From contig NC_088295.1 of assembly GCF_032854445.1 (NCBI RefSeq), positions 32,082,510 to 32,146,509 on the forward strand: 64,000 bases of DNA, in the 5' to 3' direction. Position numbers and translations under genes: made by a program. The DNA comes from Liolophura sinensis. Lineage: Eukaryota. Positions 20,451 through 63,295 of this stretch are shown piece after piece. Below the pieces are notes generated by a model that searched no databases, was not told the DNA's origin, and saw nothing but the letters and a program-made list of their open reading frames with translations. The first letter of the stretch is position 1, and the number at the start of each line of letters is the position of its first letter.

Positions 20451-20714
20451 GTACGGACCGACATTTACAGATATACATGTACATGCACTTTTGTTTAAGC
20501 ATCCATTCGCTTCAGTCATGTCTATATTACATGTAGGTGTCCTCAGCCTGTTACTGTTTATTTCATTTGAATGAGTGTAGGGTAATATAGACTTGTTGTG
20601 GAGTGTGGGGTTAGGGTGGGTCGGAGTATCGCAGCTATTGCAAATTTGCACTTGTTTGGTATGGGGTCTATAAGCCACAATTAGAAGAATATCTCGTTTA
20701 CTTTTCTTTTCCAG

Positions 20715-20874
20715 AATGATGAATTTGCCATATATCAGAGTAACCAACAGAAGCTGAGGTACCTGATCGAGTTCACTTTACCTGGGGACAAGCCACTGCC
20801 TGCACCACTACAGCTCACCAGAAGTGTGAAATCACCAGACTTTGAGCACCTGGATTTCTCTGACATCATGGCAG
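20715..20874 (+). CDS. PARP4: PARP4-like exon 12 (catalytic Glu)
   Basis: NDEFAIYQSNQQKLRYLIEFTLPGDKPLPAPLQLTRSVKSPDFEHLDFSDIMA, compare human DDEFVVYKTNQVKMKYIIKFSMPGDQ. Confidence 0.85.
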
Positions 20875-21454
20875 GTATGGGGTAATGTTCCATCAGCTCA
20901 CCCATCCATCATGTTTGCCATCATGCAAATATAAGGATTTTCTGCCTCTACGGTAGTTATTGAATGAACTTTTTGAAAAGCAGATATTTTGTATTCGTAT
21001 GGCATTTTGTTATTTCACTTAGGCCACACCAATTAAAATTTTTGTTTTGACAAGCTGAATAAATCTTCTCTCTATGTCGGAGGGTATGAAAATAAAACTG
21101 AAAAACCACCTACACTGTAGCTCATCACATTTGTGGTAACTGTGAACTGTCCCAACATATTTATGTGATCCGAAAGCCTAGGAAAACTATAAAATCACAA
21201 AAAACATTAAAGATTGTACAGAATAAAAAGTTGGGTTTTCAATTTTATTTTTATTTCGTTTTTGGATTTTCTGTTGTTGGCTTGCCTGTGAAACATAAAA
21301 TAAAATTGGTGTAGCCTGAACTCTAAGGAGGGACACACCAAAAGTGTCATGGAATTATTGAGCCACAGACTAGGGAAAACTGGATTTATTTTCATTCAGT
21401 ATAAAATTTCATATGTAATAAATGTATACCTAAATGTATTATAAAATTGTGGTG

Positions 21455-21655
21455 GTGGGGAGTGAGAGTCTCTCACCAATGCAGTCAATGTGAGTTCAAG
21501 TCCACTGTATGCTGGATTCTTCTTTGGCTTTATGTGGGAAGGTTTGCCAGCAACCTGCAAATGGTCGTGGATTTCCTCTGGGCTTGGTCATATAAGTGAA
21601 ATATTTTTAAGTACAGCATAAAACACCAATCAAAGAATTAAAATAAATACTATAA
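21455..21655 (+). mobile_element. SINE copy (5'-truncated) in intron 12
   Basis: 'ctcaccaatgcagtcaatgtgagttcaagtcc...' followed by tail 'gtgaaatatttttaagtacagcataaaacaccaatcaaagaat'. Confidence 0.6.
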
Positions 21656-21926
21656 GATGGTTTTGGAGAACTAGGAAAAGGTATGATACTGAAAGTTTTG
21701 CACTAAAAAATGGTTCCATATGATCATGAGTGATGGAGAGTGATGTGGGCTGTGTCTAAGGATTGGGGATCTCTTCCTCATAGTGGTCTTTTAAGCATTC
21801 ACGTTTTGAAAGAAATATTTTGATGGTTATTTAAAGAAGTGGATTAAGCTGAAATAAAAAAAAAATGGAAAACATGTTTGTAGTAGATTTTTAAAGTTGT
21901 TTGGGATTGTGCATGAATTGCTTTCA

Positions 21927-22057
21927 GATGTGACACGTGTCCAGAGTAAGGAAGACCCATTGAGTAAAGTGACCAGTGGACTAGTGAGTTCTGGGGATTC
22001 GTCTGTCCCCCTCAAATCGGTCCATATCAGGGCACGTCTCCTCGACATGGCTGCTCA
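21927..22057 (+). CDS. PARP4: PARP4-like exon 13
   Basis: (D)VTRVQSKEDPLSKVTSGLVSSGDSSVPLKSVHIRARLLDMAAQ, compare human GNLVPLEDVHIKGRIIDTVAQ. Confidence 0.8.
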
Positions 22058-22084
22058 GGTACATGTAATGCTGATTTGTCTCAT

Positions 22085-22790
22085 CATGTTTGTACAATGT
22101 AGGATTGTGGTGCTGTAAAGGAATTTGGTTTGCTCAGTTTATACTGATCAGGCTAGTATGATTGTGGCGCTGTAAAGGAATTTGGTTTGCTCAGTTTATA
22201 CCAATCAGGCTAGTGGGATTGTGGCACTGTAAAGGAATTTGGTTTGCTCAGTTTATACTGATCAGGCTAGTGGGATTGTGGTGCTGTAAAGGAATTTGGT
22301 TTGCTCAGTTTATACCGATCAGGCTACTGGGATTGTGGCGCTGTAAAGGAATTTGGTTTGCTCAGTTTATACTGATCAGGCTAGTAGGGTTGTGGCGCTG
22401 TAAAGGAATTTGGTTTGCTCAGTTTATACCGATCAGGCTAGTAGGGTTGTGGCGCTGTAAAGGAATTTGGTTTGCTCAGTTTATACTGATCAGGCTAGTG
22501 GGATTGTGGCGCTGTAAAGGAATTTGGTTTGCTCAGTTTATACCGATCAGGCTAGTGGGGTTGTGGCACTGTAAAGGAATTTGGTTTGCTCAGTTTATAC
22601 TGATCAGGCTAGTATGATTGTGGCGCTGTAAAGGAATTTGGTTTGCTCAGTTTATACTGATCAGGCTAGTAGGGTTGTGGCACTGTAAAGGAATTTGGTT
22701 TGCTCAGTTTATACCGATCAGGCTAGTATGATTGTGGCGCTGTAAAGGAATTTGGTTTGCTCAGTTTATACCAATCAGGCTAGGATTGTG
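22085..22790. repeat. Minisatellite, 58-bp unit x ~12, in intron 13
   Basis: 'ggattgtggcgctgtaaaggaatttggtttgctcagtttataccgatcaggctagtgg' reiterated. Confidence 0.95.
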
Positions 22791-23124
22791 GTGCTAAGGT
22801 TTGACATGTTTGTACTGCTAGTAGAATTGTACTGCTAATGTAGACTTGCTCATTTTGTTATGTACTGTAAACTTAACTTGGTATACAACAAGTAAGCAAT
22901 AAATTTCCCATTCCCATAAGTTTTTGTCCCATTTTAACCATTGTCAACAAAATTATGACTGTTTTTGTCTTGTGGTCGTTTTTGACATACTATACATATT
23001 TAATATTCTGATGGCTGAAACTGGCAAGGGACATGTATTGCCAAAAAACTTAGTTTAACAACAAAGTGTAACACCTTTTAATTAAGACACCTGTGTACAT
23101 ATATACTGTGATTATTAAACACAG

Positions 23125-23349
23125 GTGGTTGTTCTACAAGAGTACAGTAATGACCTGAACACAGCCATCGAGGCCAAGTATGTGTTTCCACTGGATGACC
23201 TGGCTGCTGTCTGCGGGTTTGAGGCCTTCATTAACGGTAAACACATTGTGGGGGAGGTGAAGGAGAAGGCTACAGCCCACAGGGAGTATAAGGAGGCTGT
23301 TAGTGCTGGTCATGGGGCATACTTAATGGACCAGGATGAAGAGACACCT
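23125..23349 (+). CDS. PARP4: PARP4-like exon 14 (VIT domain start)
   Basis: VVVLQEYSNDLNTAIEAKYVFPLDDLAAVCGFEAFINGKHIVGEVKEKATAHREYKEAVSAGHGAYLMDQDEETP, compare human VIVFQTYTNKSHVPIEAKYIFPLDDKAAVCGFEAFINGKHIVGEIKEKEEAQQEYLEAVTQGHGAYLMSQDAP. Confidence 0.95.
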
Positions 23350-23994
23350 GTGAGTTGAATTTAAGGCATGGTATCACATTCCTGAGGCTAAACCACTTTT
23401 GAAATGAAGTCCATGTTTGCCAGTTAGACACACCTAACAAAATCGTGTCTAGAGAAACTCAATTTAGGTGTGTGCTGATCAAATTCCTGGTCTTTTGTAA
23501 GGGATGTGATCACCACAAAAACAAAGATGACAGCCTGAATTTAATCCACAACTGTTTGGCTGGTAAATTCTTTTAATTTGAGGAAATTTGAGTTAATTGT
23601 TTTACATGTTTCAACCATATTGACATCATTTGAATGTGAGTGAATTATTTTTGTGTACAGTACATGTATCTTACATCCATAAGATATACGCAGTTGTTAA
23701 TAAATAAATAACGCAATGAAATAAATAAACATTGATTAAATGAATAAGGAATAAAAATAAACTCCAGTCAAACAAACAAATATTTTATTAGGAGATAAAT
23801 AATAGGTTATCTATTATTATCTTTTTTAAAGGTTGGTGGTTCACCCCACAGACTCAGGTCTCCACCAGCCATAAAAACTGACTACCATCACCTAAGTGAA
23901 ATATTCTTGAATAAAGCATTAAGAAACAGTCAGATATATGAATCATTAATTGTAGTAGTGGAAGGTGAATCTGATGTCTGTGCTTGTTGTCCAG

Positions 23995-24159
23995 GATGTG
24001 TTCACAGTTAGTGTTGGGAATCTGCCCCCAAAGGCCAGTGTTCTTATCAAGATCACCTATGTGGCAGAGCTGCTGACAGAGGAGGGACTGATCAGCTTCA
24101 GTCTTCCTGGTAGTGTGGCGCCATGGAAACGAGACTCCGCCCTTGACCAGACTACACAG
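23995..24159 (+). CDS. PARP4: PARP4-like exon 15 (VIT)
   Basis: DVFTVSVGNLPPKASVLIKITYVAELLTEEGLISFSLPGSVAPWKRDSALDQTTQ, compare human DVFTVSVGNLPPKAKVLIKITYITELSILGTVGVFFMPATVAPWQQDKAL. Confidence 0.95.
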
Positions 24160-24776
24160 GTGAGGACGAAAACTTACTGACCAGGATCCGTGTCTCTAAA
24201 CTACAGTAAATGAATTGTAATTTCGTGAAAGTTTTCACCCTGCTGTGGGAGCTGTAGTACATAAGAGTGATTAGTTGGTGAGCAGTCATATGACTTAAGC
24301 TAATAATGAATTTATTTTTGAATTTTAATACTCCTAATCACCCAATGTTTTATGTGATTTTCTAGTTGGTAAAGCTTCTTTAAAATAGTAGATGATTTAC
24401 TGTACATATACGTTAAACGTGCATGATGTGCCTAAATATAGCTCATCATACAAATCAGATACAAGTTGAGTGATAAAATCATGGGGAGTAATAGGTCTAT
24501 TCGTGTTGTTACATTGCATGAAATACAACAGTGGGGTCTGTGATTCAGGATTGGTCACTTCACCATGCTTGTGTTATTAACTAAATCCTCACCCTATTGG
24601 ACCTCTAAAGCACTTTTCCCCATGGAATTTATGCCTACATTAATATTAAAATAGCCTTTAAATGAAAATGTATTCATGTTGAAACATTGTAGCTCGACAC
24701 TGTTGACATATTATGTCAGATGTACATACATGTACACATCTGAAAATTATGTTTTTGTGATCTTGGCTTTTTTCAG

Positions 24777-24899
24777 ACAGCTGTGGATACACTGAAGGTG
24801 GACTCTAACATTGGTCAGAACACCAGTCTCCAGATCTCCGTGAACATGCCCTTTGACATCAGGTTTATCGAGTCACCCACGCACAGGCTGAAGAAAAAG
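24777..24899 (+). CDS. PARP4: PARP4-like exon 16 (VIT)
   Basis: TAVDTLKVDSNIGQNTSLQISVNMPFDIRFIESPTHRLKKK, compare human DTVEKICIKEIGTKQSFSLTMSIEMPYVIEFIFSDTHELKQK. Confidence 0.85.
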
Positions 24900-25079
24900 G
24901 TATGTAGGTAGATATGTGCATATATGTACTACATTGTACATATTCAGGGAGTGATGGCCACTAAGTTTGTGTTTTGAACAGAGATTACTCTGCTCAAATA
25001 GTTTTATGGAAAAGCATTATTTTAAAGCTTTTATGTACTTATGAAAGTTTTTACAGGCAAAAGTTTTGGTGAAATACAG

Positions 25080-25253
25080 TATGTAAGCTATGATTTTTGG
25101 TCTGATTTACTACAGACTACAGCCTCCAGAGCAGTACTGGAGTTAGAGAAGAACCAAACACTTGAGGGTGGTTTTCAGCTCCTGATTGGCCTGTCAGAGA
25201 TTCATGTACCACGGATGTGGGTTGAGGAACACCCGGACAATGAGGACAGTCAG
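25080..25253 (+). CDS. PARP4: PARP4-like exon 17 (VIT end)
   Basis: YVSYDFWSDLLQTTASRAVLELEKNQTLEGGFQLLIGLSEIHVPRMWVEEHPDNEDSQ, compare human ...SSGFSLHIGLSAAYLPRMWVEKHPEKESE. The acceptor atacag| at 25079 was chosen because the stronger tttacag| at 25056 gives a stop in phase 0. Confidence 0.75.
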
Positions 25254-25282
25254 GTAATCATAGTTGTCTCCCCCTTCCTGTG

Positions 25283-25625
25283 ATGACCAGGCCAGATTGA
25301 CCCTGTACTGATGTTCATAAAGTCAAGTGGACCTGAGTTGGAGCTGTTCCTTTTTGCAGAAGAATTGTTGCAAGTGTTCAAGTTACTTTCATGGTACCAT
25401 TGGAACAAGGCATCCTTATGTAATATATTTAAAATAAAATTTCATCCATAACTCACTTACTCTTTTTTCCTGATTCTGAGAGTTCTGTGGGTCTTGAAAA
25501 GGTTCTTTCACGTTTCATTGCAAGGTAAGATGATATCCATCTGGAAAGATGTTACCAAAAGTAATATTTTATTTGTTTATTTATTTCATAAATGGCAAAA
25601 AGTTATATCCTCCACACATCACACA
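25283..25625 (+). repeat. Dispersed repeat family B (~330 bp) in intron 17
   Basis: Near-identical copy at 35925-36250 and a partial copy at 57290-57430 (tggaacaaggcatcct.atgtaat.tattt.a.ataaaatttcatccat.act.acttact..ttttcctgattctgagagttct.tgg.tcttgaaaaggt...gatgatat.ca.ctggaaa.atgttaccaaaagta.tattttatttatttattt). Confidence 0.7.
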
Positions 25626-25758
25626 TACATGTCTGTATGTACTTATTTCCTTATTTTTTTCTTTTAGTACAGTCATCATATCATCATCAGGATATAATGT
25701 TACCATATTTCATAATGTTTGATTATCTTGATATTTACTGTATTTTTCTCGATTTCAG

Positions 25759-25945
25759 GCATGCATGCTAACATTTTACCCAGAGATTGATAGTGGAAAG
25801 TCAGGAGCATCCAAGACTGTCTTCCTTCTTGACATGTCTAACTCCATGAAAGAGAAAGCTGCTAAAGACGCTGTGACTCTGCTTGTCATGTTGCTCAACC
25901 AGCTCAACAAAAATACTCACTTCAATGTGATTGTCTTTGGAACTG
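25759..25945 (+). CDS. PARP4: PARP4-like exon 18 (vWA domain, MIDAS D.S.S)
   Basis: ACMLTFYPEIDSGKSGASKTVFLLDMSNSMKEKAAKDAVTLLVMLLNQLNKNTHFNVIVFGT(G), compare human ACMLVFQPDLDVDLPDLASESEVIICLDCSSSMEGVTFLQAKQIALHALSLVGEKQKVNIIQFGTG. Confidence 0.9.
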
Positions 25946-26836
25946 GTAAAAAAAAAATTTTTCCACTTAATAGCTCTTTATTTTGACTGACATTTCATAA
26001 ACACTGTATTATGATTTAGACTGTTTTGAAACCTGACCATTGCAGTAAGAGAACATATGTGATGTATAAAGGAAAGAGTTACTATACATTAGGCCATCAG
26101 TGAATTTAGTTGGTGGTACATTCCAGAGTTTCTTCTGTGCTGTGCTGTGCTGGTGTTTAAATGTGCATCTAATATTTTGAAACCAGCCAAGAAGATTGCA
26201 TGTTATGAGATAACTAACTTATAGGATGCTTTTGTAATATACATAATTAATATAGTTCATACTGGAATGATGCCCTTCAGGCAAACTATATATACTGCTG
26301 ACAGCTTGGGTAATTCCAGTAAAAATATAAGTTTTTTTGATGTGACTATGTAACAATCGTTGATATGATCTTTTGTCTGCCCATTCCCCTCCCCTTGCTT
26401 TACAAATGCCCCTGTCTGGGTTGTGTACATCATTGTCTTCCGATGTAACCCAATCTGGCTTGTGGGGAAGATATGTGAAAACTAATTAAGTAGGACTGTT
26501 TAAGAAGACCCACGCTTTGTTATATCACTTTTGTTATGATCTAATTAACTTTTGAAAAATATTACTGTATTTGTATATATTTTCTTAAATATACAGAAAT
26601 TCTTCATAACTTGTTCCTTGTACACATGTGTTAACAATTTTTATCATCCATGTGGTGACTGTATAAAGACTGTATATTGGTGGGGGGGGGGGCATATATG
26701 ATGATTTGTAAACACCTGGCACACAATCTAGTATTTTATTTATAGTGGTGTGTCAGTAGATTAATTTGTAAATTTGGAATTTAGTAAATTAAAGGCTTGA
26801 TGTTTCGTTACTGAGCAGTGTGGTTTTTGTCTTTAG

Positions 26837-26910
26837 ACTCAGAAGAGGTGTTCAGTGACTATCAACCAGTTACCAAAACCAGCATACAGGCTGTACTCAA
26901 ATTTCTCAAG
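26837..26910 (+). CDS. PARP4: PARP4-like exon 19 (vWA)
   Basis: (D)SEEVFSDYQPVTKTSIQAVLKFLK, compare human YKELFSYPKHITSNTMAAEFIMSA; phase closes the carry from exon 18. Confidence 0.7.
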
Positions 26911-27329
26911 GTTTGTATATAAAAAACTAAATGGAAAAGCTTTGAAGGAAAAGGGTAACACAGGGTCATATACAAGAAGATTTTGATACCTTTCACTGGT
27001 GGCCAAATTACAGCATATCCTAACAAGGCAAAAATTGTGGAGAATATTGTCCGATAATTTTTTAAAAAATTCCTTATATTCATAGAAACTGACTGTAGAA
27101 AGATTTATCGGTAACATCAAAACTTTAATTTGGTATAGGACATTAAGTTAAGGTTTTTGATGGTCTGGAAATAGTTTCACCCAAACTAGCCTACTAAAAG
27201 GGTGTCCAAAGGAAAAATCTGTATTTAGCACGGTAGCACATCGCATCATGAAAGAATTTACTATCAAAATAATTTATACTATCTCCCTATGCTGGTATGT
27301 CTTATTCTTTTTTGCTCTCCATTACACAG

Positions 27330-27520
27330 GAGAAGGTAACCAAAACTATGGGAGGAACAAACTTATATCACCCCCTCCATACCCTCCTGCTTCTTCAACC
27401 AACAAGTACCCCCCTCAATGTCCTCTTGATATCAGATGGCCATATCAACAATGAGGAGGTGATATTGTCTGATCTGATGATTAACTCTACTTCCCTTAGG
27501 CTCTTCACTGTCGGAGTCAG
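27330..27520 (+). CDS. PARP4: PARP4-like exon 20 (vWA)
   Basis: EKVTKTMGGTNLYHPLHTLLLLQPTSTPLNVLLISDGHINNEEVILSDLMINSTSLRLFTVGV, compare human TPTMGNTDFWKTLRYLSLLYPARGSRNILLVSDGHLQDESLTLQLVKRSRPHTRLFACGIG. Confidence 0.9.
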
Positions 27521-27976
27521 GTTTGTACATTTAGTAGTGAAAAATGTAGAGATTATTTCAGTTTGTTAGTTTGCTCAAAAATACCATTGTATACATGTGA
27601 ATGAATGATAAATACAGGAACGCTATTCATGCCATCTCAGGATGATCACTAAAGCACACCACAGTACATCAGTACAAAGTCATGGCATATGGGCCTGTAA
27701 TGTGTCTCGGTCATTGATAAGCAAACTTTAGGCATGATATACCAGGCCTATAAAGTTGATGACATTGCTCAGGTTGACCAAACATAATAACCTTTTTCTT
27801 TTTGTAGAATATCTCTGTACTTGTTTTTTTAAAGTATGTGTATGTAAGTCCATAGTGACCCAGTATATGAAACTAGTAAGGATTTCAGTTAAAATTGTAT
27901 GTGTGGATTTGAAAATGTTGTGCATGTTGTATTTTACAAGAATACAGGGGTGATTAATTCTGTTGTTTTCCACCAG

Positions 27977-28076
27977 TGATTCAGCTAACAGGCACAGATT
28001 AAGGTCTCTGGCAAGAATTGGAAGTGGCTGCTTTGAATTCTTCGACAGCAAATTGAAGTCTAAGTGGGGTGCAAAG
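27977..28076 (+). CDS. PARP4: PARP4-like exon 21 (vWA end)
   Basis: (S)DSANRHRLRSLARIGSGCFEFFDSKLKSKWGAK, compare human STANRHVLRILSQCGAGVFEYFNAKSKHSWRK. Confidence 0.9.
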
Positions 28077-28214
28077 GTGTGTAAAAGTTGTGTCAAAGTT
28101 GAAGCATATTTATATTGTCAGACATCTGATTTTTCAGGTTTCTCTTGGTACTAAAAGCATGAAGCAAAACTGTCATAAAAAAATCTCATAATTTGCTATA
28201 CCTTTGATTTATAG

Positions 28215-28385
28215 GTGAAGTCTGTATTGTACAGAGTGTCACAGCCCAGCCTCACCTCAGTGCATGTGGAGTGGCACCAGTATGATAACAACCCCCAACC
28301 TCCCATCCAGGCTCCCCGACAAATCATGTCTCTCTTCACGGGAACACGGCAGGTTGTCTACGGATTTGTCTCAAATTGCCAAATG
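28215..28385 (+). CDS. PARP4: PARP4-like exon 22
   Basis: VKSVLYRVSQPSLTSVHVEWHQYDNNPQPPIQAPRQIMSLFTGTRQVVYGFVSNCQM, compare human QIEDQMTRLCSPSCHSVSVKWQQLNPDAPEALQAPAQVPSLFRNDRLLVYGFIPHCTQ. Confidence 0.85.
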
Positions 28386-42954: not shown

Positions 42955-45215
42955 ATATGGTGACACATCACATGTATGAACTTGTATTCATATGTGTTAT
43001 ATACGAGACCTGTGCGAAACCTTCATAGCTAATGTATTCTTCTGTCATGTCTGTACACCATATTCTCTTGTTCTACCTTCACATCCTGTGTGCCACATTG
43101 TATGAACTTGTATTTATATGTGTTATATACGAGACCTGTGCGAAACCTTCATAGATAATGTATTCTTCTGTCATGTCTGTACACCATATTCTCTTGTTTT
43201 ACCTTCACGTGCTGTGTGCCAGATTGTATGAACTTGTATTCATATATGTTATGTACGAGACCTGTGCAAAACCTTCATAGATAATGTATTCTTCTGTCAT
43301 GTCTGTACACCATATTCTCTTGTTCTACCTTCACATGCTGTGTGCCAGATTGTATGAGCTTGTATTCATATGTGTTATGTATGAGACCTGTGCGAAACCT
43401 TCAGAGATAATGTATTCTTCTGTCATGTATGTACACCATATTCTCTTGTCCTACCTTCACATGCTGTTTGCCAGGTTGTATGAGCTTGTATTCATATGTG
43501 TTATGTATGAGACCTGTGCGAAACCTTCAGAGATAATGCATTCTTCTGTCATGTATGTACACCATATTCTCTTGTCCTACCTTCACATGCTGTGTGCCAG
43601 GTTGTATGAGCTTGTATTCATATGTGTTATGTATGAGACCTGTGCGAAACCTTCAGAGATAATGTATTCTTCTGTCATGTATGTACACCATATTCTCTTG
43701 TTCTACCTTCACGTGCTGTGTGCCAGATTGTATGAACTTGTATTCATATGTGTTATGTATGAGACCTGTGCGAAACCTTCAGAGATAATGTATTCTTCTG
43801 TCATGTATGTACACCATATTCTCTTGTTCTACCTTCACATGCTGTGTGCCAGGTTGTATGCACTTATATTTATATAGTATGTCAGATTGCATGGACTTGT
43901 ATTTGAATGTGTTATGTAGATGGCATATTCTCTTGTTCATGCATCACATGCTGTATGCCAGATTGCATTTACATGTATTTGTATGCGTTATATAAGCTGT
44001 GAGAACTGTACATGTAGGAAACTCACAGATGATGTAATTGTTCATTTAATTGTTCTAGATTACAGATTGGGAGGAGCTGGTGATGGAGATGACAAAGGTA
44101 ACTCATCGTCATCAAGTGAGGATGAGGACTACGCTCCAATACCTGATATATATAGTGAAGGTGACATTCTACATTACATGTTCTGCCATTCCTCTATGCC
44201 TCTAGATGAGATAAATATAATTATGTGTATGCATGGGCTCTTTCACTCATGGACAGGCCTAAGTCCAGCAAATAAGTTTAAACAATGGACAGGAATGACA
44301 ATTCTGCAAACACAGCATTTATTTTATTTTCCATCAAAAGTTTGACAATTATGTTCAAGCCTGCTGGCCTTCATCCTGAGAAACATTTTGTCAGTGACGA
44401 GACAGACAGTAGCAGCTAGCTATGTCGTCATCCTCCTGATATATAGACAGTGTACGGGACATAGTGGCCAGCTATGTTGGTGACATCCTCCTGATGTATA
44501 GACAGTGTACGTGACATAGCGGCCAACTATGTTCTTAGCATCCTCCTGATATATAGACAGTGTAGGGGACATAGCGGCTAACTATGTTGTTGGCATCCTC
44601 CTGATGTATAGACAGTGTATGGGACATAGAGGCTAACTATGTTGTTGGCATCCTCCCGATGTATAGACAGTGTACGGGACATAGCGGCCAACTATGTTGT
44701 TGGCATCCTCCTGATGTGTAGACAGTGTACGGGACATAGTGGCTAACTATGTTGTTGGCATCCTCCTGATGTATAGACAGTGTACGGGACATAGAGGCTA
44801 ACTATGTTGTTGGCATCCTCCCGATGTATAGACAGTGTACGGGACATAGAGGTTAACTATGTTGTTGGCATCCTCCTGTGGTATAGACAGTGTACGGGAC
44901 ATAGAGGCCAACTATGTTGTTGGCATCCTCCTGATGTATAGACAGTGTACGGGACATAGAGGCTAACTATGTTGTTGGCATCCTCCCGATGTATAGACAG
45001 TGTACGGGACATACAGGCTAACTATGTTGTTGACATCCTCCTGATGTATAGACAGTGTACGGGACATAGCGGCCAACTATGTTGTTGGCATCCTCCTGAT
45101 GTATAGACAGTGTACGGGACATAGAGGCCAACTATGTTGTTGACATCCTCCTGATGTATAGACAGTGTACGGGACGTAGAGGCTAACTATGTTGTTGACA
45201 TCCTCCTGATGTATG
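42955..45215 (+). repeat. Segmental block copy 1: 123-bp array (42955-43870) + ~480-bp unique segment + 57-bp array (44395-45215)
   Basis: 123-bp unit 'gtattcatatgtgttatgtacgagacctgtgcgaaaccttcatagctaatgtattcttctgtcatgtctgtacaccatattctcttgttctaccttcacatgctgtgtgccagattgtatgaactt'. 57-bp unit 'ggacatagcggccaactatgttgttgacatcctcctgatgtatagacagtgtacg'. Confidence 0.9.
44059..44097 (+). CDS. PARP4: Candidate PARP4 C-terminal micro-exon (copy 1 of 3)
   Basis: ITDWEELVMEMTK between ttctag| and aag|gtaact, compare human PARP4 C-terminal AVPWTELLSLQTEDG. Identical or near-identical copies at 47895-47933 and 51255-51293. Confidence 0.25.
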
Positions 45216-45349
45216 TGTGGGGATCTGTGATAATAAGGGATTAACAGCATTGTTCGTGCAATCTAATATTCGCTGATGTATTCTTCTGTCATGTCTGTAC
45301 ACCATAATTCTCTTGTTCTACCTTCACATGCTGCGTGCCAGATTGTATG

Positions 45350-46980
45350 AACTTTTATCATATACCTATGCGTGTTACCCGCCTGATACAGAGCCCCCTG
45401 ATATTTTTTCGTATCACCATCCTCTGAACATTTTGCGCGCGCGAAACTACTTTTGCACCGAGTGACCTTTCCCTGGGAAAGCCCTGCGGTCCTTGACAGG
45501 GATTTCCATGCAGACCTGACCTACTTACACGAACATGCAACTTATTCTCCCTAAATTTAAGACCCAGAAAAACTAATAAAAATTTTTCTACACTGTCTAC
45601 ATGCCAACATTATGGGCAAAAAGGTTATAATCAAATATTTTCGTCATTTTATTGTGTCATCTGCTATGTGATTTTTGGTGTCAAATTACATTCCGCCACG
45701 CTGATAGCTGTCGATGTCAAACTATATGAAAGTCCGGTAGAGGCGTACAAAGTCTACAAGGACCACAGGCCACCAAAAATGTGAACAGCCGACAATCCAT
45801 TTTACCTCGGCATCGATTACAAAAGAAAAGTTTGCAGCAATGTATGGTACAAATGCCAACCAATGGGAGAGCACACCCTAAAATCAATTATGAAAACCAT
45901 GGCAAAACGATCGAACTTACCTGGCCATTTTACAAACCACAGTGCCCGCAAAACAACATGTAACCGTCTCCATCATGCTGGCGTAGCTCCCGCAACTATC
46001 ATGCAACTCACTGGTCACAAAAATATTGCAAGTATGAATAATTACGCTGTTTTTTTCTCATAGTATGCAGGAAAAGATGAGCCACATCATTTCAAATGCA
46101 CCAAATGTCACAAAGCCTTTCGCTGCGAGCGTAACTCTTTCTCCCCAACCCAGTACATCCACAAAAATTGATGCAGCTGTCCCATCATCTTCTACAGTAC
46201 AGAATGATCTGTTTGTTTCACAGAATTTCACACACAATGTAAACCATGCCACCAGAACATGTACAACTACCGGTATTTTCCAGGGTGCATCCTTTTCAAA
46301 TTGCACGTTCCACCTCAATTTCTGCCACGGATCAGCTGCTCATTAACTTTGTTGACAAACTCTTTCAAGAACTCACAGAGACTTCAGCAAATTTATAGAA
46401 CTTTCAGTCATCCACATGCAATTAAATCACTTCTTCACTTCTAAAATTGGTGGTTGACCTGATTTAGCGCACTTTACAGCTGCTATAATCAATTTCAAAA
46501 TGCCACTTGTCAGGTTTGAGATGATGTTTATATAAACGTTACAGTTCTTGCATTCAGATAGCATCTGTGTTTTTCGAAAAGCCAGCTATACTTACTTGAT
46601 GTTGTATAAATAATATTTCCACGGTTTTTTGAGTCTTTGTTTTATTTTATTTTCTTTATTTTCATATTTTTTTTTTTACCCAATGTTTGTGTCTTCAGCG
46701 GTGGTCAACTATTTTGAAATATGCTATATTTAGAACGAAATCCATGTGCGCGTCACAGTTTGTGAGCATTATGACGGCCTGTGCACTGCCAGACACTATA
46801 CCCTAAGCAAAGTAGTCTGAAGAAATATCTGCACTTTATGACCCCCAAAGTAGTGTCAATAGAAGGTATATGATAAGTAGATTATCATCACACTGTGCTG
46901 ATCTGCATCATCCTATCTGCTCTCGTTCTCTGCGGTTGCGTTGCCGTATCGACCGAGCCCTGTGGGCGACGATTCAGATC
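45350..46980 (+). mobile_element. 1.6-kb insertion, absent from the block 2/3 junction, carrying a Crypton/DUF3504-type tyrosine-recombinase remnant
   Basis: The connector 45205-45350 is identical to 50335-50480, which in copy 2 runs straight into the 123-bp array. Here 1.6 kb of unrelated, GC-richer sequence intervenes. Confidence 0.55.
45781..46063 (+). pseudogene. Tyrosine recombinase C-terminal domain (Crypton/DUF3504-like), frameshifted
   Basis: ORF 45863..46063 '...SNLPGHFTNHSARKTTCNRLHHAGVAPATIMQLTGHKNIASMNNYA' matches the YR/DUF3504 motif (TNHS.R.T..T.L...GV....I...TGH+S......Y). The upstream ORF 45781..45963 overlaps in another frame. Confidence 0.55.
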
Positions 46981-47000
46981 AGCACAGTGTGATGATAATC
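46880..47000. repeat. Perfect 26-bp inverted repeat (hairpin stem) with a 69-nt GC-rich loop, at the right boundary of the insertion
   Basis: 46880-46905 'gattatcatcacactgtgctgatctg' is the exact reverse complement of 46975-47000 'cagatcagcacagtgtgatgataatc'. Confidence 0.85.
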
Positions 47001-50000
47001 TCTGTATTCATATGTGTTATGTACGAGACCTGTGTGAAACCTTCATAGCTAATGTATTCTTCTGTCATGTCTGTGCACCATATTCTCTTGTTCTACCTTC
47101 ACATCCTGTGTGCCAGATTGTATGAACTTGTATTCATATGTGTTATGTACGAGACCTGTGCAAAACCTTCCGAGCTAATGTATTCTTCTGTCATGTCTGT
47201 ACACCATATTCTCTTGTTTTACCTTCACATGCTGTGTGCCAGATTGTATGAACTTGTATTCATATGTGTTATGTACGAGACTTGTGCAAAACCTTCATAG
47301 CTAATGTATTCTTCTGTCATGTCTGTACACCATATTCTCTTGTTCTACCTTCACATCCTGTGTGCCAGATTGTATGAAGTTGTATTCATATGTGTTATGT
47401 ACGAGACCTGTGCGAAACCTTCATAGCTAATGTATTCTTCTGTCATGTCTGTACACCATATTCTCTTGTTCTACCTTCACATGCTGTGTGCCAGATTGTA
47501 TGAAGTTGTATTCATATGTGTTATGTACGAGACCTGTGTGAAACCTTCATAGCTAATGTATTCTTCTGTCATGTCTGTACACCATATTCTCTTGTTCTAC
47601 CTTCACATGCTGTGTGCCAGATTGTATCAGCTTGTATTTATATAAGTTGCGTATCCAGTATCCTCCAGTATACTACCTTCATATGCAGTGTGTCAGGTTG
47701 CATGGACTTGTATTTGTATGTGTTATGTAGGAACTGTAGAAAACTTTTAAAGAAGATGGCATATTCTCTTGTTCATGCATCACATGCTGTATGCCAGATT
47801 GCATTTACATGTATTTGTATGCGTTATATAAGCTGTGAGAACTGTACATGTAGGAAACTCACAGATGATGTAATTGTTCATTTAATTGTTCTAGTTCACG
47901 GATGGGGAGGAGCTGGTGATGGAGATGACAAAGGTAACTCATCGTCATCAAGTGAGGATGAGGACTACGCTCCAATACCTGATATATATAGTGAAGGTGA
48001 CATTCTACATTACATGTTCTGCCATTCCTCTATGCCTCTATGGGCTCTCTCACTCATTGACAGGTCTAAGTCTAGCAAATAAGAAGTCTAAACAATGGAC
48101 AGGAATGACAATTCTGCAAACACAGCATTTATTTTATTTTCCATCAAAATTTTGACAATCATGTTCAAGCCTGCTGGCCTTCATCCTGAGCAACATGTTG
48201 TCAGTGACGAGACAGACAGTAGCAGCTAGCTATGTCGTTGTCATCCTCCTGATATATAGACAGTGTACGGGACATAGAGGCCAGCTATGTTGGTGACATC
48301 CTCCTGATGTATAGACAGTGTACGGGACATAGCGGCCAACTATGTTGTTGGCATCCTCCTGATATATAGACAGTGTAGGGGACATAGCGGCCAACTATGT
48401 TGTTGACATCCTCCTGATGTATAGACAGTGTACGGGAGGTAGAGGCTAACTATGTTGCTGACATCCTCCTGATGTATAGACAGTGTACGGGACATAGCGG
48501 CTAACTGTGTTGTTGACATCCTCCTGATGTATAGACAGTGTACGGGACATAGTGGCTAACTATGTTGTTGACATCCTCCTGATGTATAGACAGTGTACGG
48601 GACATAGCGGCTAACTATGTTGTTGACATCCTCCTGATGTATAGACAGTGTACGGGACATAGCGGCTAACTATGTTGTTGACATCCTCCTGATGTATAGA
48701 CAGTGTACGAGACATAGCGGCTAACTATGTTGTTGACATCCTCCTGATATATAGACAGTGTACGGGACATAGCGGCCAACTATGTTGTTGACATCCTCCT
48801 GATGTATAGACAGTGTACGGGAAATAGAGGCTATGTTGTTGACACCCCCACGATGTATAGACAGTGTACAGGACATAGTGGCCGGCTATGTTGTTGGCTT
48901 CCTCCTGATGTATAGACAGTGAATGGGACATAGAGGCCAACTATGTTGTTGACATCCTCCTGATGTATAGACAGTGTACGGTACGTAGAGGCTAACTATG
49001 TTGTTGGCATCCTCCTGATATATAGACAGTGTACGGGACATAGCGGCTAACTATGTTGTTGACATCCTCCTGATGTATAGACAGTATACGGGACATAGAG
49101 GCTAACTATGTTGTTGGCATCCTCCCAATGTATAGACAGTGTATGGGACATAGAGGCTAACTATGTTGTTGGCAGCCTCCTGATGTATAGACAGTGTACG
49201 GGACATAGCGGCTAACTATGTTGTTGACATCCTCCTGATGTATAGACAGTGTATGGGACATAGAGGCTAACTATGTTGTTGGCATCCTCCTGATATATGG
49301 ACAGTGTACGGGACATAGAGGCTAACTATGTTGTTGACATCCTCCTGATGTATAGACAGTGTGCAGGACATAGAGGCTAACTATGTTGTTGGCATCGTCC
49401 TGATGTATAGACAGTGTACGGGACATAGTGGCCGGCTATGTTGTTGACATCCTCCTGATGTATAGACAGTGTACGGGACATAGCGGCTAACTATGTTGTT
49501 GACATCCTCCTGATGTATAGACAGTGTATGGGACATAGAGGCTAACTGTTGTTGGCATCCTCCTGAGGTATAGACAATGTATGGGACATAGAGGCCAACT
49601 ATGTTGTTGGCATCCTCATGATATATAGACAGTGTACGGGACATAGCGGCTAACTATGTTGTTGACATCCTCCTGATGTATAGACAGTGTACGGGACATA
49701 GCGGCTAACTATGTTGTTGACATCCTCCTGATGTATAGACAGTGTACGGGACATAGTGGCCGGCTATGTTGTTGACATCCTCCTGATGTATAGACAGTGT
49801 ACGGGACATAGCGGCTAACTATGTTGTTGACATCCTCCTGATATATAGACAGTGTACGGGACATAGAGGCTAACTATGTTGTTGACATCCTCCTGATGTA
49901 TAGACAGTGTACGGGACATAGTGGCCGGCTATGTTGTTGACATCCTCCTGATGTATAGACAGTGTACGGGACATAGCGGCTAACTATGTTGTTGACATCC

Positions 50001-50340
50001 TCCTGATATATAGACAGTGTACGGGACATAGCGGCTAACTATGTTGTTGACATCCTCCTGATATATAGACAGTGTACGGGACATAGAGGCTAACTATGTT
50101 GTTGACATCCTCCTGATGTATAGACAGTGTACCGGACATAGAGGCTAACTATGTTGTTGACATCCTCCTGATGTATAGACAGTGTACGGGACATAGCGGC
50201 TAACTATGTTGTTGGCATCCTCCTGATGTATAGACAGTGTACGGGACATAGCGGCTAACTATGTTGTTGACATCCTCTTGATATATAGACAGTGTACGGG
50301 ACATAGTGGCCGGCTATGTTGTTGGCATCCTCCTGATGTA
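46985..50340 (+). repeat. Segmental block copy 2: 123-bp array (46985-47625) + unique segment + 57-bp array (48175-50340, ~38 units)
   Basis: Same architecture and >90% identity to copy 1. Confidence 0.9.
47895..47933 (+). CDS. PARP4: Candidate micro-exon copy 2 (FTDGEELVMEMTK variant)
   Basis: ctag|ttcacggatggggaggagctggtgatggagatgacaaag|gtaact. Confidence 0.2.
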
Positions 50341-50409
50341 TGTGTGGGGATCTGTGATAATAAGGGATTAACAGCATTGTTCGTGCAATCTAATGTTCGC
50401 TGATGTATT

Positions 50410-52905
50410 TTTCTGTCATGTCTGTACACCATAATTCTCTTGTTCTACTTTCACATGCTGCGTGCCAGATTGTATGAACTTGTATTCATATGTGTTATGT
50501 ACGAGACCTGTGCGAAACCTTCATAGCTAATGTATTCTTCTGTCATGTCTGTACACCATATTCTCTTGTTTTACCTTCACATGCTGTGTGCCAGATTGTA
50601 TGAAGTTGTATTCATATGTGTTATGTACGAGACCTGTGTGAAACCTTCATAGCTAATGTATTCTTCTGTCATGTCTGTACACCATATTCTCTTGTTTTAC
50701 CTTCACATGCTGTGTGCCAGATTGTATGAAGTTGTATTCATATGTGTTATGTACGAGACCTGTGCGAAACCTTCATAGCTAATGTATTCTTCTGTCATGT
50801 CTGTACACCATATTCTCTTGTTTTACCTTCACATGCTGTGTGCCAAATTGTATGAACTTGTATTCATATGTGTTATGTACGAGACCTGTGCAAAACCTTC
50901 ATAGCTAATGTATTCTTCTGTCATGTCTGTACACCATATTCTCTTGTTCTACCTTCACATGCTGTGTGCCAGATTGTATGAGCTTGTATTTATATAAGTT
51001 GCGTATCCTCCAGTATACCCCATTATCTGGTTCTACCTTCATATGCAGTGTGTCAGGTTGCATGGACTTGTATTTGTATGTGTTATGTAGGAACTGTAGA
51101 AAACTTTTAAAGAAGATGGCATATTCTCTTGTTCATGCATCACATGCTGTATGCCAGATTGCTTTTACATGTATTTGTATGCGTTATATAAGCTGTGAGA
51201 ACTGTACATGTAGGAAACTCACAGATGATGTAATTGTTCATTTAATTGTTCTAGATTACGGATTGGGAGGAGCTGGTGATGGAGATGACAAAGGTAACTC
51301 ATCGTCATCAAGTGAGGATGAGGACTACGCTCCAATAACTGATATACATGGTGACTGTGACATTCTACATGACATGTTCTGCCTTTCCTCTATGCCTCTA
51401 GGTAAGATAAATATAATTATGTGTATGCATGGGCTCTTTCACTCATTGACAGGCCTAAGTCCAGCAAATAAGAAGTCTAAACAATGGACAGGAATGACAA
51501 TTCTGCAAACACAGCATTTATTTTATTTTCCATCAAAATTTTGACAATCATATCCAAGCCTGCTGGCCTTCATCCTGAGCAACATGTTGTCAGTGACGAG
51601 ACATACAGTAGCAGCTAGCTATGTCGTTGTCATCCTCCTGATATATAGACGGTGTACGGGACATAGTGGCCAACTATGTTGTTGACATCCTCCTGATGTA
51701 TAGACAGTGTACGGGACATAGCAGCCAACTATGTTGGTGACATCCTCCTGATGTATAGACAGTGTACGGGACATAGCGGCCAACTATGTTGTTGACATCC
51801 TCCTGATATATAGACAGTATACGGGACAGCGGCTAACTATGTTGTTGGCATCCTCCTGATGTATAGACAGTGTACGGGACATAGCGGCCAACTATGTTGT
51901 TGGCATCCTCCTGATGTATAGACAGTGTACGGGACATAGCAGCCAACTATGTTGTTGACATCCTCCTGATGTATAGACAGTGTACGGGACATAGCAGCCA
52001 ACTATGTTGGTGACATCCTCCTGATGTATAGACAGTGTACGGGACATAGCGGCTAACTATGTTGTTGACATCCTCCTGATGTATAGACAGTATACGGGAC
52101 AGCGGCTAACTATGTTGTTGGCGTCCTCCTGATGTATAGACAGTGTACAGGACATAGAGGCCAACTATGTTGTTGGCATCCTCCTTATGTATAGACAGTG
52201 TACGGGACATAGAGGCTAACTATGTTGGTGACATCCTCCTGATGTATAGACAGTGTACGGGACATAGTGGCCAACTATGTTGTTGGCATCCTCCCGATGT
52301 ATAGACAGTGTACGGGACATAGAGGCCAACTATGTTGTTGACATCCTCCTGATGTATAGACAGTGTACGGGACATAGCGGCCAACTATGTTGTTGGCATC
52401 CTCCTGATGTATAGACAGTGTACGGGACATAGCGGCCAACTATGTTGTTGACATCCTCCTGATGTATAGACAGTGTACGGGACATAGCGGCTAACTATGT
52501 TGTTGGCATCCTCCCGATGTATAGACACTGTATGGGACATATCGGCTAACTATGTTGTTGGCATCCTCCCGATGTATAGACAGTGTACGGGACATAGCGG
52601 CTAACTATGTTGTTGGCATCCTCCCGATGTATAGACAGTGTACGGGACATATCGGCTAACTATGTTGTTGGCATCCTCCCGATGTATAGACAGTGTACGG
52701 GACATAGCGGCTAACTATGTTGTTGACATCCTCCCGATGTATAGACACTGTACGGGACATATCGGCTAACTATGTTGTTGGCATCCTCCTGATGTATAGA
52801 CAGTGTACGGGACATAGCGGCTAACTATGTTGTTGACATCCCCCCAATGTATAGACAGTGTACGGGACATAGCGGCTAACTATGTTGTTGGCATCCTCCC
52901 GATGT
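50410..52905 (+). repeat. Segmental block copy 3: 123-bp array (50410-50990) + unique segment + 57-bp array (51575-52905)
   Basis: Same architecture; directly tandem to copy 2. Confidence 0.9.
51255..51293 (+). CDS. PARP4: Candidate micro-exon copy 3 (ITDWEELVMEMTK)
   Basis: ctag|attacggattgggaggagctggtgatggagatgacaaag|gtaact. Confidence 0.25.
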
Positions 52906-53641
52906 ATAGACAGTGTTCAGAGTGCATATACTGCTGCTTACTGCTGTAACTTCTTGTGTAGCGCTTACCACCTTGTTAGCTACAACTCCTGTTTACGGTT
53001 TATGCCTGTCCATCTGTTGTTAGCTTTATTTCCCATCTCAAAACTCTCAGTTGAAATCTTCAAGCAAGAACTTACTTCAGGCAATGTGTGAAACTCACCC
53101 AACAACTATACAGTTTGAAGATATAGCAATCCGCAGATGAGAGTTAAATGTTTACCTAATAAGCCTGTTCTTTATGATTCCATTTTTACATGATGCTCAT
53201 TGTATAAATAGTCCAAGAAGGTGACTGTGTCTAGTGGTGAGCCCCTCGTTCAGTCCAGAAACGCAATTGCTCCAAATATATTTAAAGAGAGTATATCGGT
53301 GAATTTTGGTGGAAAATAGATCGGTAAAAATCTGTCTGTTTGCCATTGTTTTGGAATAATCAAAATGATTACCTTTCACAAAATATTAGCCGTGTTTGCG
53401 AATGTCCTTATCACTGTGTATAGTTTAGGTATGAGTCGAATACTTACTGAAAGACAATGATGTGAGCTATTCTTGGTAAATAGAGTGATCTGATGGTGAA
53501 TATGGATTTTTCCTCCAAAAGTCTCCGGTATAGATTCTCTAAGAAAAAGCTTCCACATTTGGTGCACATGTTTTCCTTGAAGAACAGTTCTTCTGAAACA
53601 CATTATTTTAATTTTAACACTTAATATTGAATGTCTGACAG

Positions 53642-54416: not shown

Positions 54417-55000
54417 AAGCCCTGTCCAGACTATCCCACATCACTCAGCTTTTGTTGAATTAACAAGATTCAACTTGAAATTGAGGCAACAGGTTGTGCC
54501 ATGTTGAGTAGTCTAGACAGGTACTTCAACTTCGTTCAGTAACACTCCTCACCATCCAAAATTGTTGAATCAAAAATGTGCATGTGTATTTTTGTCAACA
54601 AGTTGAGTCAATCAGCAAGCGTGTAAAAATAATGTGACCGCCTTAAGGCATGTGACCTGGGCAAAACAGCAGCACCACAGGCGAAAGAGAGAAACTGGTC
54701 TCATGATGAGACAGTTTCGTTGATACAGGAGTATGATATATACCCTTGCCTGTACAACACTGTCTCTATAGATTACAAAGACAGGGACAAAAGAAAATCA
54801 TTGTCTCATGCACTGGAGAGAAAGATGGAAATTTCCCTGCAATTTATTGAAAGTTTGGTGAAAAAACACAGCTCAGCACACAAGTGTTGGACAATGTTGA
54901 ACTATCTGATTTGTAGTGTGGACGGGATACTCAACTTACCTCAACAGATTCAACTTACTGTTGAGTCAACAAAAGTTGAAAGATAGCCTGGACAGGGCTT
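54417..55000 (+). mobile_element. 584-bp TIR element (MITE-like, non-autonomous DNA transposon) carrying a MADF-domain ORF
   Basis: Left end 'aagccctgtccagactatc' and right end 'gatagcctggacagggctt' form 19-bp TIRs (1 mismatch). Subterminal inverted motifs 'cttttgttgaattaacaagattcaacttg' and 'caagttgaatc...caacaaaagttg'. Confidence 0.55.
54633..54986 (+). CDS. MADF (Myb/SANT-like) domain ORF inside the TIR element; no in-frame ATG upstream
   Basis: ...KERNWSHDETVSLIQEYDIYPCLYNTVSIDYKDRDKRKSLSHALERKMEISLQFIESLVKKHSSAHKCW... fits the MADF consensus (W..E.T..LI.....P.LYD.....Y+D+..+..AW..I). Harbinger/PIF Myb-like proteins carry this domain. Confidence 0.45.
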   Translation, partial: CDRLKACDLGKTAAPQAKERNWSHDETVSLIQEYDIYPCLYNTVSIDYKDRDKRKSLSHALERKMEISLQFIESLVKKHSSAHKCWTMLNYLICSVDGILNLPQQIQLTVESTKVER

Positions 55001-61310: not shown

Positions 61311-61691
61311 ATGGCAGGATACTTTTTCAGCATTTTCAGATTATTCAGATGTATACATGGAGAACAGCATACAGTGTGTCAGTATTTGAGTGGTTTGAGG
61401 TCTTGTTCTAGCTTTGTTCAGCTTCCATACAACCTGGTTGATGCTGTACATATTAATATTGCCAATGTAACACACCTAAAAATTCAGTATCCAAGTCAGT
61501 TAATTTCATCAGGGAGGTTTTGAAAACTGAGTGTAGGTGGTTTTTGGTGATGTGACTTTTATTTTGTCTCCCTAATGGCCAAACCTATAATATGTTCAAA
61601 CTTCCATCCACCTCAGTGTGGAATCATTTGTGATTCAAGTTTTAATCATGCACAAGTCATATGTAGGACACTTTGATTTTGTGTTTTGCAG

Positions 61692-62816
61692 ATCATGAGC
61701 AGAAGAAATATGCAATATCAAAGAAAGAAAGCAGTTCATCCAGATCAAATTTTAAGGAAAGACTACAGAAAAGGGCAATAAGCACCAGGTTTGCAGATTC
61801 CAGAGAAGAGAAGCATCTGATGACAGGACAATTGGTGGACTCTTCAGCAGATAAACCATCTGCTCTAATTCCTGACAAAAACAGAGAAATACCACTCCAT
61901 GAAAAGATTGTTGAAAAACCAAAAAAGAAAATAAAAGATCTATCCGGATCAGTATTCATTCCTCTTTGCGGAAGGATGTCTTCTCCAATAAAACAAGTAG
62001 GAAAATCACCACCACCCAGCAGATTTGGAAGATCACCACCTCCACCACCACCTAGCCGATTTGAACAAGGACCACCTCCACCACCACCTAGCAGATTTGA
62101 ACCAGTTCCACCTCCACTACCTCCCAGGAGATTTAGAACAGTACCACGTCCACCACCACCTGGCAAACTTGGATCAGTACTACCGCCCCCACCGCCCAGT
62201 AAATATGGATCAGTACCACCTCCCCCACTGCCCAGTAAATCTGGATCAGTACCACCTCCCCCACCACCGAGTAGATCAGTACCACCTCCCCCACTGCCCA
62301 GTAAATCTGGATCAGTACCACCTCCCCCACTGCCCATTAAATGTGGATCAGTACCACCTCCCCCACCACCCAGTAGATCAGTGCCCCCTACCCCACCGCC
62401 CAGTAAATCTGGATCAGTAACACCTCTACTATCTACCAGTAAGATTGATTCAGCAATACCATCACCTCCACCTCCTAGCAGATTTGGATCAGCACCACCT
62501 CCTCCACCTCCTAGCAAATTTGAATCAGCACCACCTCCTCCACCTCCTAGCAAATTTGAATCAGCACCACCTCCTCCACCTCCTAGCAAAGTTAGACCAG
62601 CCCGGCTTTCCACTTTTCACAGGAGATCTCGTGAACGCAAGTCAAATGTTGTATTTCCATGTGGAAAACAATATATGCTTCAGGGGCATGCAGCTGTCTC
62701 CTCAGAACACTATTCAGAATGTGCTGAATCATTAGTTCACAGGAAGGAGTTTGGAGATGTAGTTCAGACAGTATTCCCTGGGGCAGAGGCTGTGCTTGAT
62801 AAAATGGCAGTGATAG
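61692..62816 (+). CDS. Large proline-rich exon (FH1-like poly-Pro repeats), 375 aa; gene affiliation unresolved
   Basis: ttttgcag| acceptor at 61691, donor atag|gtaaat at 62817. About 17 repeats of [GS]xPPPPPPS[KR][FSY]G. Flanked by a basic/acidic N-segment (KKESSSSRSNFKERLQKR) and a C-segment ...CGKQYMLQGHAAVSSEHYSECAESLVHRKEFGDVVQTVFPGAEAVLDKMAVI. Confidence 0.55.
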
Positions 62817-63295
62817 GTAAATACTTGGTCACACATGTTTTTCGTGCTGTTTCATCGATTTTGAAGGAACTTATGGCCATTCTCTCCTGTTATAGTTTTG
62901 AACAGTTTTCAGAACAATTTTTTTTTTGTGCAAAGTATTTTAACAGTTATTTTTAGCTCAGTTCTATGAAGTAAGGAAAGGTATTGTAAAGGGTGGGGCA
63001 GGTGGGAAGGGTCAGTGTTGGTTAAACTTTTTTAGCTCCATAGTATATGGAATGGTATGTAAATGTACCTGCTCAGATGGAAGGTTAAGCATTTTTTTAA
63101 TACAGCAATAGAAACTGTGTTACCCCCTTAACAAAGATACATGTCATGTGTATACAGGAATCTCCTCTGTCCTTCTGTCTTTAGACATGATTATGTCCAT
63201 ACATCTCCTCCCTAACTACTCAGCTAATTTTGAAGAAACTTACCATACATCTTGCCTACCATCTAAACTTGTGCATGCTTATAAAGCTTAATTAT

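Follow-up and report, generated by a model that had tools for sequence, protein, structure and literature searches.

The locus raises the question of what kind of DNA interrupts a satellite array between the first two copies of a composite repeat block, and whether the tyrosine recombinase (YR) sequence found within it has any part in its movement. The window, meaning the whole 64-kb stretch of DNA that was analysed, is animal nuclear DNA with a GC content of about 39%. A PARP4-like gene with BRCT, PARP, VIT and VWA exons, whose closest database matches reach 50-80% identity in short stretches, occupies approximately 10.3-28.4 kb on the + strand, and from 29 kb on the window is dominated by satellite arrays. 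Within 42.9-52.9 kb, a composite block is present three times. Each copy combines a 126-bp satellite with unique DNA of about 570 bp, a further satellite of 55 bp and a connector, and the unique segments show 87-91% mutual identity. A first-pass annotation had regarded the segment between block copies 1 and 2 as an insertion, had recognized in it the remnant of a Crypton/DUF3504-type recombinase, and had implied that the whole is a Crypton with a hairpin as its own terminus. The analysis presented here points to a different assignment. With a probability of roughly 0.6, the segment is a non-autonomous rolling-circle element of the Helitron2/Helentron type (HLE2 in HELIANO terminology) carrying a captured Crypton-type pseudogene fragment, of which one copy is known here.

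The inserted nature of the segment is readily apparent from the comparison with its paralogous empty site, and the earlier claim is borne out in this respect. When the 150 bp preceding the segment (45205-45354) are fused to the 150 bp following it (47004-47153), the flank chimera aligns to 50332-50631 of the same window with 97.3% identity and zero gaps, which leaves 1649 bp extra at 45355-47003. Because the empty site at about 50481 aligns gap-free over the junction, neither a target-site duplication (TSD) nor a deletion is present: no base of the target satellite unit was lost and none was duplicated. The left part of the broken 126-bp unit, ending in ...GTATGAACTT, lies at 45272-45354, and the 126-bp array resumes at 47004-47643, starting with GTATTCATATG... 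(the coordinates of all features refer to the + strand). The empty site, TGTATGAACT^T^GTATTCATA, occupies 50471-50490 with its TT at 50480-50481; read as AACT^T^GTATT, it is compatible with both a T/T and a T/G insertion. The boundaries are thus ambiguous by 1 nt, the element being 45355-47003 for a T/G cut or 45354-47002 for a T/T cut. Its ends read TTATC... and ...ATCTCT and the target reads CTT/GT, with TTTT at the 5' boundary and a single T at the 3' one. The microhomology between element and target amounts to 1 nt only, and direct repeats at the element ends do not exceed 1 nt.

Both ends of the inserted segment are structured. The 13-nt 5' repeat, TTATCATATACCT (45355-45367), is the perfect inverse of the 3' repeat, AGGTATATGATAA, at 46864-46876; it lies 0-1 nt from the 5' end and coincides with the left boundary mapped independently from the empty site, the first nucleotide of the element being a T. 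The 3' repeat is located 2 nt upstream of a 3'-terminal stem-loop of 123 nt (46879-47001), which itself ends 2 nt before the 3' boundary. The first-pass annotation had described both features, and its reading of them needs correction in detail: the inverted copy of the left end does stand just before the hairpin, at 46864-46876 rather than 46862-46874, and the hairpin at the right boundary has the 69-nt loop reported, while its perfect stem measures 27 bp and not 26. The stem is formed by 46879-46905 and 46975-47001, extends to 34 nt if two mismatches are allowed, and encloses a GC-rich loop at 46906-46974 whose central 55 nt have a GC fraction of 0.62.

Folding calculations confirm the strength of this structure. 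As ssDNA, the hairpin gives z-scores of -7.1 for the + strand and -8.4 for the - strand; as RNA, the check that had been proposed earlier, the values for the two strands are -11.1 and -9.3, and none of the shuffled controls folds as well. Because hairpin stability shows no strand asymmetry, it favours neither a function as RNA nor either of the two DNA strands. In Rfam, the only match is to MIR1515, a plant miRNA-like family; its 31 bits lie well below the gathering score of 140 and reflect a generic hairpin shape. A tRNA search gave none. The inverted repeat does not belong to the borders of the satellite arrays, since the equivalent border in block copy 2 is without it and the hairpin arm is absent from the rest of the window. 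Among the folds of the first 34-69 nt, no significant one takes in the 5' repeat, so that a 5' hairpin or inverted repeat involving it is not predicted. When 40 nt from the 5' end and 164 nt from the 3' end are joined into a mini-element, the ssDNA fold consists of a 13-bp panhandle, 2 nt, the hairpin and a 2-nt 3' tail, with a z-score of -9.0. This model suggests that the 5' and 3' termini would adjoin in a displaced single strand.

The significance of the terminal arrangement depends on the length of its parts. A minimal signature, defined as an 11-nt repeat beside a 9-bp hairpin, occurs about 0.8 times per shuffled window, and the real window yields this element alone. As such a minimal signature is common by chance, the case depends on the two lengths, 13 nt and 27 bp, and on the match of these features to the independently mapped ends. 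For a perfect inverted copy of the 13-nt 5' tip within the last 200 nt, our own arithmetic gives an expectation of about 1e-5, the ends having been mapped independently. This value also bears on the view that no transposition took place and that the segment is filler or ectopic DNA captured in a double-strand break of the satellite, or the remnant of a segmental rearrangement. Such an origin would be in keeping with the 1-nt junction microhomology and with the single copy in the data examined. It is nevertheless very improbable, because both boundaries match a specific architecture of inverted repeat and hairpin, in which the 13-mer alone would arise by chance with the frequency just given, and because the junction is clean, with no target bases lost.

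Both the 13-nt repeat pair and the hairpin arms have the heptamer TTATCAT at their outer ends, and these sites make up four of its nine occurrences in the 64 kb. The shared heptamer suggests that a single protein may recognize all of these ends. It could also be taken to indicate two members of one superfamily lying side by side, namely a TIR element of 1.5 kb (45355-46876) next to a separate foldback element or MITE of 123 bp (46879-47001), the hairpin being of MITE size with long perfect arms. Two neighbours of this kind are, in our estimate, improbable. The two parts are separated by only 2 nt, the composite stops exactly at the satellite break, both parts are missing together at the empty site, and two independent hits at one spot are less parsimonious. 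Furthermore, a TSD is seen neither around the single parts nor around the composite, and this speaks against DDE cut-and-paste elements. The suggestion that the hairpin is an unrelated foldback element is most probably incorrect.

Several known classes can be set aside on the same structural grounds. A DDE-type TIR transposon or MITE was rejected, as neither the whole nor its sub-parts show a TSD and the right 13-nt repeat lies 127 nt internal to the end. Spy-type PIF relatives, which produce no TSD, insert between AAA and TTT, a target that is not present here. Replitrons, considered as a further candidate, have terminal direct repeats and were rejected for this reason. With canonical Helitrons (HLE1), the element has in common a structure of rolling-circle type, a pseudogene cargo, a 3' hairpin as presumed termination signal and the absence of a TSD; it differs from them in having terminal inverted repeats, and on neither strand does it show a 5'-TC, a 3'-CTRR or an insertion between A and T, so that this class was rejected as well.

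The layout corresponds instead to that of Helitron2/Helentron elements. Helitron2 elements have asymmetric TIRs of 8-15 bp, the 5' one lying 0-2 bp from the end and the 5' nucleotide being a T, with the 3' TIR placed immediately upstream of the 3' hairpin (PMC3627910); Helitron2/Helentron elements are defined by a short TIR located at the 5' tip and a partner directly before the 3' stem-loop (PMC3627910, PMC4067079, PMC11417382). Helentrons and HINEs, among them DINE-1, were described by Thomas et al. with subTIRs of 12-15 bp, a 3' palindrome and a TT target that is left unmodified (PMC4067079). The present element has a perfect 13-nt pair, within the 8-16 nt expected of asymmetric TIRs. Its 5' repeat falls inside the expected 0-4 nt from the terminus and begins with T, its 3' repeat stands just upstream of a 3' stem-loop, with a gap of 2 nt and a stem-loop of atypical size, and its target is neither duplicated nor modified. 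Insertion between T and T, with two or more Ts at each boundary, is a further feature of the class; the present target admits the T/G reading equally, and of the two boundaries only the 5' one shows several Ts. One feature of the class is missing, namely the 5' hairpin or inverted repeat that accompanies the 5' repeat in Helitron2 and DINE-1 and that is absent in mite HINEs as well. Collectively, these observations argue for membership in HLE2, and the hairpin, which had been proposed earlier as a possible YR recombination site, is better accounted for as part of this architecture.

The likeness is closest to HINEs such as Drosophila DINE-1, mite HINE-Mo and oyster Cg_HINE. These elements, like the present one, have one repeat copy at the 5' tip and the other ahead of the 3' stem-loop, a 5' T, a T-rich or TT-compatible target, no TSD and no coding capacity of their own; they may also harbour gene fragments that are no longer functional, and they occur in association with satellite arrays. 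In HINEs, captured pieces of genes that contain stop codons and frameshifts are sometimes found (PMC4067079). In bivalves, elements of the Helentron/HINE type are abundant and satellite-associated, and in the oyster the Cg_HINEs have the same modules and lie within and next to satellite-like arrays (PMC7492417). In contrast, the 3' stem-loop of the present element, with 123 nt and a stem of 27-34 bp, far exceeds the 5-10 bp palindromes of HINE/HLE2 elements, and its 3' repeat lies 127 nt from the 3' end as compared with 20-60 nt, a displacement that follows from the large stem-loop. The run of Ts that marks the 3' boundary of HINEs is lacking; unlike typical HINEs, the element also lacks a 5' inverted repeat or hairpin, and its interior contains neither a microsatellite nor a tandem-repeat core. 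Finally, its cargo is a piece of another transposon's recombinase, which distinguishes it from the HINEs used for comparison. The insertion event is of an ordinary kind, and the element, if assigned to HLE2, adds to a known class, its 3' stem-loop being unusually long.

The coding content of the element is limited to the C-terminal approximately 60% of a Crypton-type YR, which is present in sense orientation at 45680-46346 and was delimited by Pfam, tblastn and translations. This fragment takes up about 650 of the 1649 bp, with a 5' module of 325 bp on one side and an AT-rich 3' module of 517 bp on the other. For the non-coding sequence between the 5' repeat and the fragment (45368-45679), neither homology nor an Rfam match was detected. 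The 3' non-coding module (46347-46863, GC 0.35) contains a weak tandem repeat and a T-rich tract at 46634-46680, and shows no protein homology. The frameshifted recombinase remnant noticed earlier is substantiated by a profile search: the conceptual translation, joined over the frameshift, matches Pfam Phage_integrase with an E-value of 1.9e-11 (44.5 bits, cut-off 27.1) and DUF3504 with an E-value of 1.2e-8 (35.7 bits, cut-off 29.7). The match covers only positions 74-166 of the 172 in the profile, so that the first 73 or so positions of the catalytic domain are missing.

Comparison with homologues gives the same picture. In tblastn searches with twelve of them, a single-frame match is confined to 45680-46051 and begins at homologue residue 18-150 or thereabouts, depending on the completeness of the homologue, and at 132-151 in the two longest (P0001, P0002). 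Homology resumes in a second frame and continues to about 46343, the joined translation covering 89% of the query. The N-terminal half of the YR, including Arg-I, is found neither in the insert nor elsewhere in the window, even at E<=50. An in-frame TGA is located at 45782-45784, a position occupied by Cys in two of the closest homologues, and the frameshift falls in a run of seven Ts at 46050-46056. Taken together, the TGA, the frameshift and the missing N-terminal half indicate that the fragment is dead as a gene. The fragment nevertheless keeps the HxxR motif in the form HSAR, the second His within GHKN and the nucleophilic Tyr within NNYA. Domesticated DUF3504 genes are without the catalytic tetrad (PMC3212892), and the conservation of HxxR, GH and Tyr thus points to an active Crypton-type YR, and not to a domesticated DUF3504 gene, as the source.

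The best relatives of the YR, each annotated with Phage_integrase and DUF3504, measure 279-364 aa and share 41-56% identity with it, and a weaker match was found in the clam Mya arenaria. On the contigs that encode the homologues (L001-L007, L010-L012), similarity is confined to the coding region, at 65-71% nucleotide identity, and nothing is shared in the end modules. The exact products of the two ORFs of the insert have no database record.

The retained motifs bring the element close to CryptonA, whose coding region, like DUF3504 genes, is homologous to the fragment over Phage_integrase and DUF3504, the HxxR, His and Tyr being kept as in active Crypton YRs and unlike in domesticated DUF3504 genes. 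It could be considered that the segment arose by internal deletion from a Crypton-like YR transposon, is itself non-autonomous, and has structured termini that represent the recombination site of the YR. The sense-oriented YR is, after all, the sole recognizable coding content; Cryptons, too, insert without a TSD, and non-autonomous Cryptons formed by internal deletion are known (PMC3212892). Certain Crypton families have no described termini (PMC13465315). By our own reasoning, if the element were circularized and the hairpin extruded, the 13-nt repeats would come to lie opposite one another in an arrangement resembling a lox site.

We consider this derivation unlikely, and the structure of the ends is what weighs against it. 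Fungal and oomycete Cryptons have direct repeats of 4-6 bp (PMC3212892, PMC13465315), and here no direct repeat or core of 4-6 bp is common to the ends and the target, the 1-nt microhomology being all that they share. The spacer of 129 nt between the 13-nt repeats does not fit a YR core site. For the insect Crypton CryptonI-1_RPro and its derivative, examined in 50 copies, neither direct nor inverted terminal repeats were found, nor were they found in any animal Crypton examined (PMC3212892). The element, by contrast, combines a 13-nt TIR with a terminal hairpin, where a Crypton would have short direct repeats or no terminal repeats and no TIR. A complete YR with the R-H-R-Y tetrad is also lacking, as the Arg-I region is absent and the frame is broken by the TGA and the frameshift. 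From CryptonA, the element therefore differs by the loss of the N-terminal half, by its disablement, by its TIRs and hairpin and by the absence of terminal direct repeats. The YR piece is moreover internal and 5'-truncated, which does not agree with the earlier implication of a Crypton ending in its own hairpin, and the HLE2 architecture already accounts for asymmetric repeats with a 3' hairpin. Distant YR relatives on longer contigs show no comparable ends, a comparison that is uninformative as the inverted repeats there cannot be interpreted.

Precedents exist for a Crypton YR residing in an element whose ends and mobility belong to another system. MarCry-1_FO carries a Crypton YR sequence inside a Mariner element with a TA TSD and 16-bp TIRs (PMC3212892), and in the Fanzor element MCi-2A a Crypton YR lies inside an unclassified carrier with TSDs of 11-12 bp (PMC3627910). 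Both of these carriers generate TSDs, whereas the present one appears to be of HLE2 type and generates none. A related view holds that the ends do belong to the YR, either because the element is a deletion derivative of an undescribed Crypton-like lineage or because it is a Helentron-Crypton chimera with an autonomous form that encodes the YR. This appears quite doubtful. If true, the element would be the first of Crypton type with defined structured termini, and the 13-nt pair with the long terminal hairpin would represent a recombination or termination site.

For the favoured HLE2 element with a captured fragment, the following sequence of events can be envisaged. A Rep/helicase of the HUH Y2 kind, encoded by an autonomous Helentron at another genomic locus and acting in trans, would nick at the 5' T and then unwind the strand; no Rep/helicase was seen, judged by eye, among the window ORFs of at least 130 aa. 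In the displaced strand, the 5' tip may pair with the 3' repeat and the hairpin may stack beside the resulting panhandle, which would bring the points of cleavage and joining side by side. The combined signal of repeat and hairpin would end the unwinding, and the strand would circularize and integrate at a T-rich site, here the TT (or T/G) of the 126-bp satellite unit. The YR sequence would be a passenger, i.e., a 5'-truncated pseudogene fragment picked up by the element, with no role in its movement.

This assignment is of practical relevance for annotation, since a feature that resembles a Crypton with an odd hairpin at its end has a simpler explanation as an HLE2-type element containing a piece of a foreign recombinase; recognizing the HLE2 architecture prevents Crypton counts from being inflated. 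Should the genome confirm a family of such elements, the perfect 3' stem of 27 bp would be unusually long for HLE2, and the fold that juxtaposes the ends would illustrate how repeat and hairpin could define the point of termination and joining.

Regarding copy number, self-BLAST over the 64-kb window returns the insert alone. The hairpin arm has 0 exact matches in JGI metagenome contigs, a result that is silent on copy number because the host satellite itself is nearly absent there: a 20-mer that occurs 15 times in the 126-bp satellite of the host gave 1 isolated match as a control. Searches of viral contigs with the 3' repeat and the start of the hairpin gave two matches, both chance palindromes in AT-rich phage DNA.

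The insertion can also be placed in time relative to its surroundings. It most likely postdates the duplication of the composite block, and from sequence comparison it appears younger than the divergence of about 2.7% between block copies, the terminal repeats and the stem still being perfect. The locus thereby offers a clean, datable presence/absence insertion within a satellite higher-order repeat.

The region surrounding the studied insertion, from 42973 to 52916, is organized as a higher-order repeat in which a composite block is present three times. Each block is composed, in order, of the 126-bp satellite, approximately 570 bp of unique sequence, a 55-bp satellite and a connector of approximately 150 bp; the unique parts of the three blocks share 87-91% identity. 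Only the middle copy is broken by the insertion (45355-47003).

Outside the window, a large nested palindrome, with 28-nt outer and 49-nt inner arms, is observed at 9184-9327 of L006, a contig of metagenomic or eukaryotic origin, and is the same in the contig L007. L006 bears a distant QRICH1/DUF3504 Crypton-like gene; the palindrome lies approximately 80 bp upstream of the start of that gene, and may represent a MITE or an element end. This palindrome is relevant to the question of whether structured termini exist in some Crypton-like elements.

The left half of the window contains a PARP4-like (vault PARP) gene, whose exons are spread over 10333-28367 on the forward strand. The BRCT-like exon (10333-10437) and the PARP regulatory-like exon (16613-16735) were recognized by eye, and Pfam or database matches back the PARP catalytic exon (20313-20417), the VIT exon (23959-24075) and the VWA exons (25804-25947, 27423-27518 and 28215-28367), all on the plus strand. 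The top protein-database matches of these exons reach just 50-80% identity, over short stretches only. Two satellite arrays are located in the introns, one at 12.6-14.2 kb and the other at 22.1-22.6 kb. In the former (12644-14202), the units stay open in long ORFs of up to 347 codons on both strands, which is probably a by-product of a unit length divisible by three.

Other coding-like segments are also present. At the far left of the window, an exon-like ORF on the minus strand (103-222) matches the rhodopsin-family GPCRs, with an E value against Pfam 7tm_1 of 1.3e-7, barely over the cut-off. The plus-strand ORF at 54633-54983 contains an N-terminal fragment of the MADF DNA-binding domain (Pfam PF10545, E 2.6e-5, over the cut-off); it could be either an exon of a host gene or a fragment derived from a transposon. 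Finally, the 429-codon open frame at 61667-62953 (+), which has no match in Pfam, consists mostly of tandem 36-bp units that encode proline-rich sequence (PPPPPPSK/SRF...); on the opposite strand a Gly-rich frame is likewise open. The 429-codon frame could be a repetitive exon, or merely a satellite that is open by accident.
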